From the IMG/VR virus record IMGVR_UViG_3300009183_004565: a stretch of 64,000 nt of DNA. One strand, written 5' to 3'. Of the stretch, positions 27,050-31,592 are shown in pieces; position 1 is the first letter of the stretch; each line of letters starts with the position of its first letter. The translations under genes and the position numbers were made by a program. This DNA is from a virus (Duplodnaviria > Caudoviricetes). The notes under the pieces are model-generated. The model did not search any database, was not told the origin of the DNA, and saw only the letters and a list, made by a program, of their open reading frames with translations.

Positions 27050-27244
27050 ATGTATATGAAACTCAACGACAAGCTAGTAAAATGCAACGATCATTTTACT
27101 GTCTATATGTACGACAATGGCTATATGGTTGAAATTGGTGGACGTGACGACAACGACGAATGGGTTACTGCCAAAGTTCTTTGCACAGATTTTAAAGAAC
27201 TAACCAATCTTATCGAAGAAGCTACCATAATGGAACGTGACTAA
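27050..27244 (+). CDS. hypothetical protein
   Basis: 64-aa ORF with AAGGAG SD. Confidence 0.6.
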   Translation: MYMKLNDKLVKCNDHFTVYMYDNGYMVEIGGRDDNDEWVTAKVLCTDFKELTNLIEEATIMERD

Positions 27245-27777
27245 TGAAAAAGTTAATTATCTCGGATGCTGAATTTAAAAAATTAGTTCACAAGCTCTGC
27301 AGAGATATTGCCAATAGCGATTGGCGACCTGACTATGTTGTAGGTTTAACTCGTGGTGGACTTACTGCTGCTGCCATGATCAGTCATTATTTTGATGTTC
27401 CTATGGAAACATTGAAGCCAAGATCGGAAAGCAATTGCTGGATGGCTGAAGATGCATTTGGATATATTCCAGACGGTCCGCTACGTGAAGGCATAGATAA
27501 ACGCAGTGACGCTACATTTAAAAAGAAAATTCTTGTTGTCGATGACATTAACGATACCGGTTCTACACTTGAATGGATACGTGAAGATTGGCAATCAAGT
27601 TGTTTGCCCAACGACGAATCTTGGAAATATGTATGGAACAAGAACGTGCGTTTTGCTGTATTAATCAATAACGAATCCAGTAACTATGAGCATGTGGATT
27701 ATTCAGGTCGTAACATTAATAAACTTGATGATCCGTGTTGGGTAGTGTTCCCCTGGGAAAATTGGTGGGAGGCATGA
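27244..27777 (+). CDS. type I purine phosphoribosyltransferase
   Basis: VVGLTRGG, ILVVDDINDTGSTL PRPP loop, WVVFPWE (xanthine-guanine PRT-like). Confidence 0.9.
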   Translation: MKKLIISDAEFKKLVHKLCRDIANSDWRPDYVVGLTRGGLTAAAMISHYFDVPMETLKPRSESNCWMAEDAFGYIPDGPLREGIDKRSDATFKKKILVVDDINDTGSTLEWIREDWQSSCLPNDESWKYVWNKNVRFAVLINNESSNYEHVDYSGRNINKLDDPCWVVFPWENWWEA

Positions 27778-28689: not shown

Positions 28690-30187
28690 AAAAGTTTTAG
28701 TATTATCAGTTCCGCGACTCGAACCACATCGCCCCCCAATTAGTGCTACTCTTGTTGCTACTGTATGCAAAAATCACGGTTGTGATGTTAAGTTACGAGA
28801 TCTAAATATTGAATTTTATCATTATTGTAAATTAAATAATATAGAATATCAAAAATTTGATCCAATTTGGGATAGATATGTAGAACCATCAAATTTAGAA
28901 CTATCACATATACACACTCATATAGATAATTTTATTGCAACTGAAGATTTGCATTCTTACGATATCATTATGATCAGTGTATTTGGCTCAAGTAGCCATT
29001 ACTTCACTGAAATGTTATTAAAAAAAATTGCAGTAGATAGATCTTATAAAATTTTATTAGGTGGTTCGGGAGCATTTGTGTCTATTATGAATCGTGGGCA
29101 TAATTCTTTTGTTGTGGAGATGCAAAAACAAAATCTAATAGACGATTTTATAAAAGGCGAGTGCGAAGAATCCTTAAAATATTATTTAGACGGTAAAGAA
29201 TATCCAGGAATTAATAACTATGATCCTGTGCAGATTGATGATTTAGATTCATTACCGTTAATTGATTATAGTTTTGTTGACTTAGATGCTTATGAATATC
29301 TCACTGAAACTAAAGATGTTTATGTAGAAGGTAGTAGGGGATGTGTACGTAAATGTACTTATTGTGATGTTCAGAAATTTTGGCCAAAATATCGTTTCAG
29401 AAGTGGTCAGCATATTGCACACGAGCTTATTAACAATTACGAAAAATTTGGCATTAAAAAATTTTACTTTACTGATAGCTTAGTTAACGGAAGTTTAAAA
29501 TCATTCAATCAGATGTGCGATATTCTTGCTAATTACCCATATAGCAAAGAAATTAGCTGGGGAGGACAATTTATTTTCAGAAATGAAAGAACTGTGCCAC
29601 CGGAGCATTTTGAAATGATCGCTAAGGCCGGCGGTACTAATACTTTTTACGTAGGAATAGAAACTGGCAGTGATCAAGTTAGAAAACAAATGGGTAAAAA
29701 TTTTACCAACGAAGATATTAGTTATCAACTTGAAGAATTTAAAAAGAATAAATTGAAATGTACTTTTTTAATGTTTCCTGGCTATATTACAGAAACTGAA
29801 AAGGATCATCAAGACACATTAGATATGTTTTTAAGATGGCAAAAGTATGTAGCCAGTGGAACTATCAATGGTTTAGAATTAGGTAGTCCTTTGATAGTTC
29901 TCGAAGGAACCCCACTAGCTAGTATGATTGATGAGTATCAAATTGCATTTTTAGAGAGTGATAGAATTACTACTGGTAATTTCTGGGTATCAAAATTAAA
30001 TCCAAGTTTTGATTTTGAGCAGCGAGCTATTAGGCAAATCAGACTATACGAAGAAGCTGCAAAATATAAATGGCCTATTTGGAGATTTGAATCAAGAGCT
30101 GAAGAATTAAAACAAACTCTAATTAGATTTTATGAAATAAAAGAAAAAAATCCAACATATAAGATAACACCAATTAAAATTAATTAA
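28682..30187 (+). CDS. cobalamin-binding radical SAM enzyme (class B methyltransferase-like)
   Basis: N-terminal B12-binding pattern (HRPP, DLN, ILLGG), EGSRGCVRKCTYCD, FTDSLVNG, VGIETGS, FPGYITET. Confidence 0.85.
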   Translation: MNKKVLVLSVPRLEPHRPPISATLVATVCKNHGCDVKLRDLNIEFYHYCKLNNIEYQKFDPIWDRYVEPSNLELSHIHTHIDNFIATEDLHSYDIIMISVFGSSSHYFTEMLLKKIAVDRSYKILLGGSGAFVSIMNRGHNSFVVEMQKQNLIDDFIKGECEESLKYYLDGKEYPGINNYDPVQIDDLDSLPLIDYSFVDLDAYEYLTETKDVYVEGSRGCVRKCTYCDVQKFWPKYRFRSGQHIAHELINNYEKFGIKKFYFTDSLVNGSLKSFNQMCDILANYPYSKEISWGGQFIFRNERTVPPEHFEMIAKAGGTNTFYVGIETGSDQVRKQMGKNFTNEDISYQLEEFKKNKLKCTFLMFPGYITETEKDHQDTLDMFLRWQKYVASGTINGLELGSPLIVLEGTPLASMIDEYQIAFLESDRITTGNFWVSKLNPSFDFEQRAIRQIRLYEEAAKYKWPIWRFESRAEELKQTLIRFYEIKEKNPTYKITPIKIN

Positions 30188-30193
30188 TAAATA
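30188..30193 (+). promoter_or_regulatory. T4-like late promoter core TAAATA
   Basis: AATAAATA immediately upstream of the queD leader RNA. Confidence 0.5.
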
Positions 30194-30204
30194 CTGTTCT
30201 ACAC

Positions 30205-30273
30205 AGCGGCCTTTCTGGCATTCATCCCGCTTTACAAATTCTGCAAGCCTATGCTAAAATCTTAACATAGGAG
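30205..30273 (+). ncRNA. candidate preQ1-I-like riboswitch variant in the queD 5' leader
   Basis: P1 AGCGG/CCGCT, loop ending CATC, A-rich tail; loop TGGCAT can pair with ATGCTA, which competes with an SD-sequestering CCTATG/CATAGG hairpin. Confidence 0.55.
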
Positions 30274-30280
30274 AAAAACA

Positions 30281-30778
30281 ATGCAACCTGTTGTATATAA
30301 ATTTACTAGTACCAAAGAGTATCACGACGCCTTTCCTTGCGCTTACCGGCAATGGCGTGCCGATAGTCATTGTAATCTAATACACGGCTATTCATTTAGT
30401 ATGAAGTTCTACTTTGGTACTAACGACTTAGACGTTCGTAATTGGGCAGCTGACTACGGTGGACTTAAAGAACTTAAAAAGATTCTTGAAGATCAATTTG
30501 ACCACACATTAATTGTAGCCGAGGACGATCCCGAACTTGCAACATTTAAGTTGTTACAAGAACGGAACATGGCCAAGATTGTCATACTACCACGTTTAGG
30601 CTGTGAAGGCCTAGCTGACTCGCTGTACAAATATGTGAATGGTGTTTATATTCCTGATATGTGGGGACCTAGTGAAGCTGAACGCTTATGGTGTTATCGT
30701 GTAGAGGTTAGAGAGACACAAGCAAACATGGCGTACCGAGAAGGTCACCGTGAATGGAACGAGGATCTGTTTGCGTAA
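30281..30778 (+). CDS. queD: 6-carboxy-5,6,7,8-tetrahydropterin synthase
   Basis: CAYRQ, SHCNLIHGY, DYGGLKELK, FDHTL, VEVRET; AGGAG SD. Confidence 0.9.
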   Translation: MQPVVYKFTSTKEYHDAFPCAYRQWRADSHCNLIHGYSFSMKFYFGTNDLDVRNWAADYGGLKELKKILEDQFDHTLIVAEDDPELATFKLLQERNMAKIVILPRLGCEGLADSLYKYVNGVYIPDMWGPSEAERLWCYRVEVRETQANMAYREGHREWNEDLFA

Positions 30779-31592
30779 GTTCGTTATACGATGTGCCCGG
30801 AATCCGGATGGTCAAGAATTCTTAGACTTAGAATTCAATATTCGTCCGGGCTCTTACTCCGGCAAATGGATAGACTGCATACGTAGTGTGGAACACTTAC
30901 CTCCACATCAATACGGATTTCCCAAATGGCTAGAACACGATGCCGGTGTATACGAGCAACGTATTGCAGATGCATTAAACAACAACACAGATATACAAGA
31001 GTTTTTATTAGACTCTAACATTGATAGAACCGTGATCAATCAAGACTTGGTCAATGCTGTCCATAGATATATTGAGCACAATCATCAACATGCCGCCGAA
31101 CATCTTGTGTTACACAATGACATACATTACTTAGAAAGTATTTGGGAAGGTGCAACTGATGTTGTGTTCAAGAAGTTACAGTGGGTACCACCAGGGCTAA
31201 TAATTGACATGACCTTGGATGACTATAAAGAATTTACTACAGAACCATGCACTAACTTTATACAAGACGATTTTAGTCATGTAGGACGTAGTCCACATAA
31301 CAGTTACCTATATCAAGATGACTCCAGTCTGTACACTAGTTGTGTTATACAACATAAAGTTGGTTCAGGTGCTAAATGGTTTATTCCTGATGATAGTCAT
31401 ATCTTTAAGGACGAACGTGGATTCAGATCGTGGGTCAGTGAACATCAAGCGTTTTTTAAAAAGCAATGGGCGATAGAAACTAATAACGATCCTAGGCTTT
31501 GTTTTGGCCGTATTATTATTGCCGAAGGTGTGGAAGATTATAGTCGGATTGATAGGACATTTGACTTCGTAGTAAAAGCTTTTATTATCTAA
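30750..31592 (+). CDS. hypothetical protein, paralogue 2 of the radical-SAM-adjacent His/Glu family
   Basis: VHRYIE, NDIHYLE, SHVGRSP...YLYQD, FRSWV, DPRLCFG; sits between queD and queE. Confidence 0.6.
   Translation: MNGTRICLRKFVIRCARNPDGQEFLDLEFNIRPGSYSGKWIDCIRSVEHLPPHQYGFPKWLEHDAGVYEQRIADALNNNTDIQEFLLDSNIDRTVINQDLVNAVHRYIEHNHQHAAEHLVLHNDIHYLESIWEGATDVVFKKLQWVPPGLIIDMTLDDYKEFTTEPCTNFIQDDFSHVGRSPHNSYLYQDDSSLYTSCVIQHKVGSGAKWFIPDDSHIFKDERGFRSWVSEHQAFFKKQWAIETNNDPRLCFGRIIIAEGVEDYSRIDRTFDFVVKAFII

Follow-up and report, generated by a model that had tools for sequence, protein, structure and literature searches.

A conserved preQ1-I-like pseudoknot in the queD leader of large lake phages, a candidate translational ON switch

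What does the spacer ahead of queD do in a large lake phage, and might it hold an RNA switch? The spacer lies in a stretch of 64,000 nt (hereafter the window, meaning the whole stretch of DNA that was analysed), which belongs to a 144-kb IMG/VR virus record (IMGVR_UViG_3300009183_004565). It separates an upstream ORF for a B12-type radical SAM protein, whose stop is at 30187, from the queD ORF at 30281-30778 on the + strand, which matches both Pfam PTPS and the PHROG QueD-like family. This 93-nt leader is non-coding, since an ORF scan found no ORF of at least 40 aa covering it. The phage encodes a family B DNA polymerase of the large-phage kind, and relatives that bear the motif described below reach 350-380 kb. 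A preliminary description of the leader had proposed a phage variant of the preQ1-I riboswitch, in which a loop-tail pseudoknot and a helix burying the Shine-Dalgarno (SD) sequence exclude one another. All the strings that it named are in place: TAAATA (30188-93), AGCGG (30205-09), CCGCU (30227-31), UGGCAU (30216-21), AUGCUA (30251-56), CCUAUG (30248-53), CAUAGG (30266-71), AGGAG (30269-73) and the ATG (30281), as is a 17-nt loop between the two P1 strands that ends in CAUC.

A protein-guided scan found 592 QueD relatives in viral contigs, and a DNA pattern made from the conserved core of the leader matched at least 119 stretches. The full motif is present at about 180 phage loci, with 125 distinct aptamer cores, one of which is a chance match. 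A covariance model trained on 31 diverse motif copies matched 101 distinct leaders at 30-65 bits (100 of these at 37-65 bits), and found one copy in the phage's own 144-kb record. Of 177 ORFs downstream of the motif, 173 encode a QueD homologue; in the few exceptions to this adjacency, an extra small ORF is inserted between the motif and queD. The QueD proteins behind the motif are 35-100% identical to that of the window, indicating that the RNA has been retained across at least two deeply diverged QueD lineages. At one locus (L089) we observed a degenerate second copy of the motif at positions 6-53 (30 bits), with P1 as ACCAG/CUGGU and with the P2 complementarity lost; it precedes a 309-aa ORF, methyltransferase-like by eye, which is inserted upstream of an intact motif-queD unit.

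GenBank phage DNA gave no match to the locus. The nearest QueD proteins of cultured phages are at most ~51% identical, and the genes for these proteins abut or overlap the upstream ORF, which leaves no space for a leader. Among the matches listed from a pattern scan of bacterial genomes, all look like chance and none contains the full motif; the covariance model likewise had no match in 3 + 151 genomes, a sample that does not prove absence. The public runs containing the locus are DNA from lake and freshwater metagenomes, with no RNA runs listed.

We regard as real a conserved structured leader ahead of phage queD, which folds as a 45-nt H-type pseudoknot at 30205-30249 (Table 1). Folding of the single sequence was uninformative (window z-score -0.55, with P1 absent from the minimum-energy fold); the alignment of leaders gives a different picture. 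P1 is 99.8% paired over the 101 distinct leaders, with double-sided changes at four of its five pairs (variants AGAGG/CCUCU, AGUGG/CCACU, ACCGG/CCGGU and UGCGG/CCGCA), and the closing G-C pair is present in 101/101. P2 joins the hairpin loop to the tail right after a near-invariant UCUGC. It is 84.5% paired, with double-sided changes at six of the seven pairs counted and 58 haplotypes; those of P2a include GGCA/UGCC, GGCG/CGCC, GGCU/AGCC, GGUG/CACC and GACA/UGUC, and also GACAU/AUGUC, GACGC/GUGUC, GACUU/AAGUC, AGUGU/ACACU and others. The P2a of the window pairs GGCAU (30217-21) with AAGCC (30245-49), leaving A30220 and A30246 mismatched; the window's own P2 has two mismatches. A mutual-information scan found a further covarying pair, A30224-U30242 (the A of the loop's CAUC and the U of UCUGC), which is A-U in 91 leaders and G-C in 7, never changes on one side only, and is seen in several P1/P2 backgrounds. 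We take this to mean that P2 extends beyond the invariant U30222/C30244 mismatch into C30223-G30243 and A30224-U30242. Over the structure as a whole, pairing holds in 90.9% of cells and both sides have changed at 10 of 12 pairs; none of 500 shuffles reached that covariation, and slid controls were 24-54% paired. The presence of G-U pairs in P2 indicates that the RNA is read from the + strand.

Table 1. Features of the queD leader in window coordinates
Feature	Position	Strand	Remark
TAAATA, late-promoter-like core	30188..30193	+	11 nt before P1; putative promoter
P1 5' strand AGCGG	30205..30209	+	pairs with 30227-31
L1 CCUUUCU	30210..30216	+	length variable, about 2-11 nt; nt 2 and 3 (C, U) 98% conserved (alignment columns)
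P2 5' strand: GGCAU (P2a), U30222 (conserved mismatch), C30223 and A30224 (P2b)	30217..30224	+	pairs with 30242-49
L2 UC	30225..30226	+	C30226 invariant, candidate ligand-pairing base
P1 3' strand CCGCU	30227..30231	+	closing pair G30209-C30227 invariant
L3 UUACAAAUUC	30232..30241	+	10 nt, A-rich, near-fixed length, invariant UC end
P2 3' strand: UG (P2b), C30244 (conserved mismatch partner), AAGCC (P2a)	30242..30249	+	from covariation
SD-sequestering hairpin CCUAUG 30248-53/CAUAGG 30266-71	30248..30271	+	shares C30248-C30249 with P2
UGCUA	30252..30256	+	conserved; at most 22 nt after L3 in 118/140 leaders, all platform classes
Shine-Dalgarno AGGAG 30269-73 and queD start codon 30281-83	30269..30283	+	from the sequence

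Several bases outside the helices are fixed. The L2 C is present in 100/100 leaders and is preceded by U in 83/100; three A's of L3 together with U30240 and C30241 are 100% conserved, and a fourth A is 95% conserved. By alignment columns L3 ends in (U/C)UC. The first base of L1 varies (U in 42, C in 42 and A in 16 of 100 leaders). Such invariant unpaired bases resemble those of aptamers. The preliminary description is borne out in having seen a small H-type pseudoknot, which proves to be conserved with compensating changes, and in its 5-bp P1, its loop-final C before the P1 3' strand and its A-rich tail.

At least four unrelated classes of expression platform are joined to this one aptamer. 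In class A, to which the window belongs, the sequestor masks the start of the AGGAG Shine-Dalgarno; among 34 leaders its pairing reaches 99.5%, with hardly any variation. Class B pairs (U)GYCAUC with GAUGGC(A), the latter including the start codon, class C pairs UGYCAUUG with CAAUGGCA, and in class D the SD contributes GAGAC, to which GUCUU pairs; ACUCC/GGAGU and CUCUAUU/AAUAGAG turn up as isolated cases. When the tails were folded to minimum energy, the SD or AUG was paired in 134 of 140 distinct leaders with the ten nucleotides that follow L3, which comprise the P2 3' strand and its neighbours. The nucleotides common to P2 and the sequestor number 2 in class A and 3-4 in the other classes; in the window they are C30248-C30249, and not 30251-53 as had been proposed. 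A duplex-energy swap between platform classes found own-class pairing to be clearly best for B, C and D and not for A, and we therefore take the evidence for the wiring from the fold-based count. The SD-hiding helix that had been proposed as the mutually exclusive alternative thus exists. Among the helices expected to covary, P1 does so, the loop-tail pairing as originally drawn is never compensated, and the anti-SD stem is paired but almost without variation.

Other elements of the tail deserve mention. The UGCUA that follows the 5' arm of the sequestor occurs as UAUGCUA, CUUGCUAC or AUUGCUA across the four platform classes, and no covarying partner for it was found in the leaders compared. 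At the start codon of 35 of 89 class-A leaders (for example L001:2966-3003) stands AGCAU(G), which is complementary to the conserved (U)AUGCU and is absent from the window; one leader (L024) has a matching double change, AUGUU/AACAU, for this pairing. The AGCAUG/(U)AUGCU pairing may be a second lock on the AUG, and the helix would stay closed upon formation of P2. The sequestering hairpin of the window also contains a four-codon mini-ORF, AUG CUA AAA UCU UAA (30251-30265); its length is not conserved (two codons in many relatives), and it is thus probably incidental.

The motif seems to begin its own transcript, probably a late one, judging from the promoter-like box just upstream. TAAATA is found no more than 40 nt upstream of P1 (mostly at 5-11 nt) in 91 of 142 distinct upstream sequences, where the expectation in the window is about 2.3% per 40 nt; other loci have TAAGTA or TTGAC/TATAAT-like boxes in its place. 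Late promoters of T4-type phages consist of a TATAAATA-like box a few nt before the transcript start, which is read by a phage late sigma factor; the window sequence at the box is AATAAATA. TAAATA occurs 37 times on the + strand of the window, often right after stop codons (for example at 2440, 14649, 26678 and 31590), a distribution that fits a T4-like set of late promoters.

We propose, with a probability of about 0.6, that the queD leader is a translational ON riboswitch composed of a pseudoknot aptamer and a competing helix that hides the ribosome-binding site. The late queD mRNA would carry in its 5' leader the aptamer (30205-30249) and then the hiding helix, and these two structures would compete for the P2 3' strand. 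Once P2 had formed, C30248-C30249 would be occupied, CCUAUG/CAUAGG could not close over the Shine-Dalgarno, and queD together with the genes behind it would be translated. The ON direction is suggested by the design itself, in which the P2 3' strand overlaps the helix hiding the SD or AUG; the preliminary description had raised ON logic as a possibility, and the 134 of 140 leaders with this overlap make it likely. By nearest-neighbour energies for the window, P1 is worth -4.9, the sequestor -5.6 and the bare P2 helix -0.8 kcal/mol, such that the closed OFF fold should win unless P2 is stabilised from outside. Something must therefore stabilise P2, which is too weak unaided, and the stabiliser would most likely be a small molecule that stacks where P1 and P2 meet and pairs with C30226. 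One aptamer connected through a common strand to variable platforms, here at least four, is a general mark of riboswitches. The adenine riboswitch of Vibrio vulnificus add is a translational ON switch built on a three-way junction, with a known ligand. Formation of its aptamer, as we propose for P2, withdraws a strand that otherwise pairs with the ribosome-binding site, although the two folds are unrelated.

Some observations sit uneasily with the ON riboswitch. First, if the product of the pathway were the ligand, it is hard to see why it should switch a biosynthetic gene on. Second, with only 2 nt common to P2 and sequestor in class A, a shortened P2 could coexist with the closed hairpin. 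Third, the window's P2 has its two mismatches, and the start-codon helix of the 35 class-A leaders and the conserved UGCUA are left unexplained.

What the ligand might be can be approached through the gene neighbourhood. folE lies ~1.6 kb upstream in 82 loci, a purine-type phosphoribosyltransferase gene directly upstream in 37 (the window copy is at 27244-27777), and queE downstream in 71; between queD and queE are variable genes, including glycosyltransferase-like, methyltransferase and B12 radical SAM genes. The commonest gene right behind queD encodes a ~278-aa protein (L108:6859-7695 and 54 other loci) that matches no Pfam family and only weakly a PHROG glycosyltransferase; the window has in its place a 280-aa ORF (30750-31592) found in just two other loci. 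Pfam QueC had no full-length match in the record, nor in any of 14 large contigs that bear the motif (two are at least 98% complete), in agreement with the earlier remark that no preQ1-forming enzyme is visible. These phages themselves thus make no preQ0 or preQ1, and their route seems to end at CDG or a derivative. Pfam TGT found nothing in five records (this one and four large relatives), which leaves a DpdA-type DNA transglycosylase unconfirmed and the suggested link to genome modification without support. Together with the phosphoribosyltransferase, the lack of QueC and TGT matches indicates that the phage may process the deazapurine at the nucleotide level instead of having a DpdA exchange it into DNA. 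Since the tailoring genes vary while the pocket bases are constant, the signal would appear to be a metabolite common to these phages and not the final modified base.

The candidate ligands would be an intermediate between GTP and 7-deazaguanine, guanine, or preQ0/preQ1 made by the host. The retained C suggests a guanine-like or pterin-like Watson-Crick face, and the change in the bases reading the other edge suggests that preQ1 is not the compound bound or that the binding mode differs. An ON switch would suit a substrate or early intermediate (7,8-dihydroneopterin triphosphate, CPH4 or CDG), or a purine signal of a general kind, more than it would the final product. Taken at its most specific, this leads to a tentative proposal, to which we give well under even odds: a new riboswitch class on a preQ1-I-like scaffold, whose altered pocket would sense a compound not yet known as a riboswitch ligand (for example 7,8-dihydroneopterin triphosphate, CPH4 or CDG) and would turn on the translation of queD, queE and tailoring genes in jumbo lake phages.

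A possible objection to a new class is that the motif is a divergent subtype of the true class I preQ1 riboswitch, binding preQ1 or preQ0 made by the host with its output inverted to ON. Class I preQ1 riboswitches are H-type pseudoknots with a 5-6-bp P1 and a G-C floor, in which a strictly conserved C before the P1 3' strand pairs with the ligand, and the other edge of the ligand (N9, N3, N2) is read by a conserved U in L1 and a conserved A in L3; in type I members P1 is preceded by 'UC' and the A-rich tail is broken by a C, and all described members of the class respond by turning genes off (PMC11625349). The phage motif has the same topology as these (RF00522, types I-III; for example B. subtilis queC, T. 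tengcongensis, C. antarcticum, E. coli), with a 5-bp P1 and a P2 made from the loop and the 3' tail (PMC11625349, PMC10622847). It also has the invariant G-C closure, the invariant C before the P1 3' strand and, ahead of that C, the U of type I. L3 is A-rich, 9-10 nt long in this comparison (10 nt in the window) and ends in C, as in real type I examples (PMC11625349), and its composition would fit an L3 lying in the minor groove of P1. Both are associated with que genes. The real type I examples that we collected read AGAGG-UUC...UC-CCUCU-AUAAAAAAC-UAAGG, and some phage variants have an identical P1, AGAGG/CCUCU, together with an AUAAAAA tail.

The differences are as definite as the likenesses. 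The phage P2 has 8 positions and a conserved U-C mismatch, against 3-5 in preQ1-I; L1 is mostly 4-9 nt long, against 1-3, and does not begin with a conserved U; and L3 has pyrimidines (YUC) where preQ1-I has the ligand-reading A. In preQ1-I the P2 3' strand holds the SD or favours a terminator, which gives OFF, whereas in the phage leader this strand is the anti-SD, the SD lying 20 nt downstream. The phage motif, moreover, was found in uncultured phage contigs only. Rfam at gathering scores had no match anywhere in the window, and at E<=10 the leader had only chance-level matches to MIR390 and freshwater-2, the latter resting on the SD/AUG stretch. RF00522 at E<=10 matched neither the leader, nor the most similar variant (L028, whose one Rfam match of any kind was a chance match on the minus strand), nor this site in a whole-genome search, and Rfam 15 has no family for the motif. 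RF00522 itself finds 43 of 61 genomes of a Bacillota order, which supplied our real preQ1-I examples, none having been found in one phylum tried; on these genuine sites our own covariance model gave 7.9 bits or less. As the phages have no QueC, any preQ0 or preQ1 would not be of their own making. We conclude that the motif would work like a preQ1-I-type pseudoknot yet, on the features tested, falls outside the preQ1-I family in which the preliminary description had placed it. A divergent preQ1-I subtype is accordingly doubtful, at something like one chance in a handful.

Less likely again is a translational operator bound by a protein, with QueD itself or a general repressor or activator of phage or host recognising the pseudoknot and so shifting the balance of the sequestor. 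Conserved single-stranded bases with varied downstream helices would fit an operator too, protein-binding operators giving the same comparative signature, and a conserved UGCUA with no covarying RNA partner is also in keeping with one. T4-type phages do use leader pseudoknots and translational repressors, the leader of gene 32 being an example. That leader, like ours, is a 5' leader pseudoknot of a large phage that governs translation of the following gene, but it is read by a protein, represses translation and has no sequence resemblance to the queD leader; we know of no report of a conserved pocket-like junction in it. Against an operator, the conserved bases of the queD leader are concentrated where P1 meets P2, the very site at which preQ1-I holds its ligand, the motif is unchanged while QueD diverges to 35% identity, and no candidate partner gene is always adjacent.

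An element that works with no ligand at all is improbable. It could be a co-transcriptional folding timer that leaves the SD accessible on newly made transcripts only, a thermosensor, or a stabiliser of the mRNA 5' end, and it is true that transcription reaches P2 ahead of the sequestor's 3' arm and that the motif stands a few nt after a promoter-like box, a position at which structure near the 5' end could shield the mRNA. Neither a timer nor a stabiliser would require, however, the invariant unpaired or mismatched bases (C and U in L1, the U-C mismatch, the C of L2, and the L3 A's with their UC), and the exclusive tie to queD (173/177) argues for a pathway-specific signal. Finally, we give almost no credence to the exact scheme of the preliminary description, in which UGGCAU (30216-21) pairs with AUGCUA (30251-56) and the rivalry with the anti-SD stem turns on 30251-53. 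The window does allow all six pairs, and UGCUA is conserved, but among 34 diverse class-A leaders the paired fraction is just 54.9% of cells and double-sided changes are absent. AUGCUA is fixed whereas the strand in the loop differs between leaders, and classes B, C and D show no counterpart of the pairing. We have rejected this pseudoknot; the loop-tail helix is that of 30217-24 with 30242-49.

In the PMC and bioRxiv literature we found no publication on this motif, nor any on a riboswitch for phage queD or for 7-deazaguanine, and the papers found on phage deazaguanine leave riboswitches unmentioned. Riboswitches that belong to viruses themselves are rare, and to our knowledge the known switches of the preQ1 family all turn genes off. 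In other riboswitch families, retention of the base that reads the guanine face with change of the readers of the other edge has marked an altered ligand specificity; the pocket of the phage motif keeps the base for a guanine-like face and changes those that read the other edge. A new class, if that reading is true, would be the first relative of the preQ1 fold to work as an ON switch, and also the first case of a riboswitch in control of a viral deazapurine pathway. At 45 nt the motif is small enough to make structure determination easy, and it is a candidate for a compact ON-type control part. Being small and abundant, the aptamer would offer a testable handle on how large lake phages time or meter the synthesis of 7-deazapurines, and on which metabolite they monitor in doing so.
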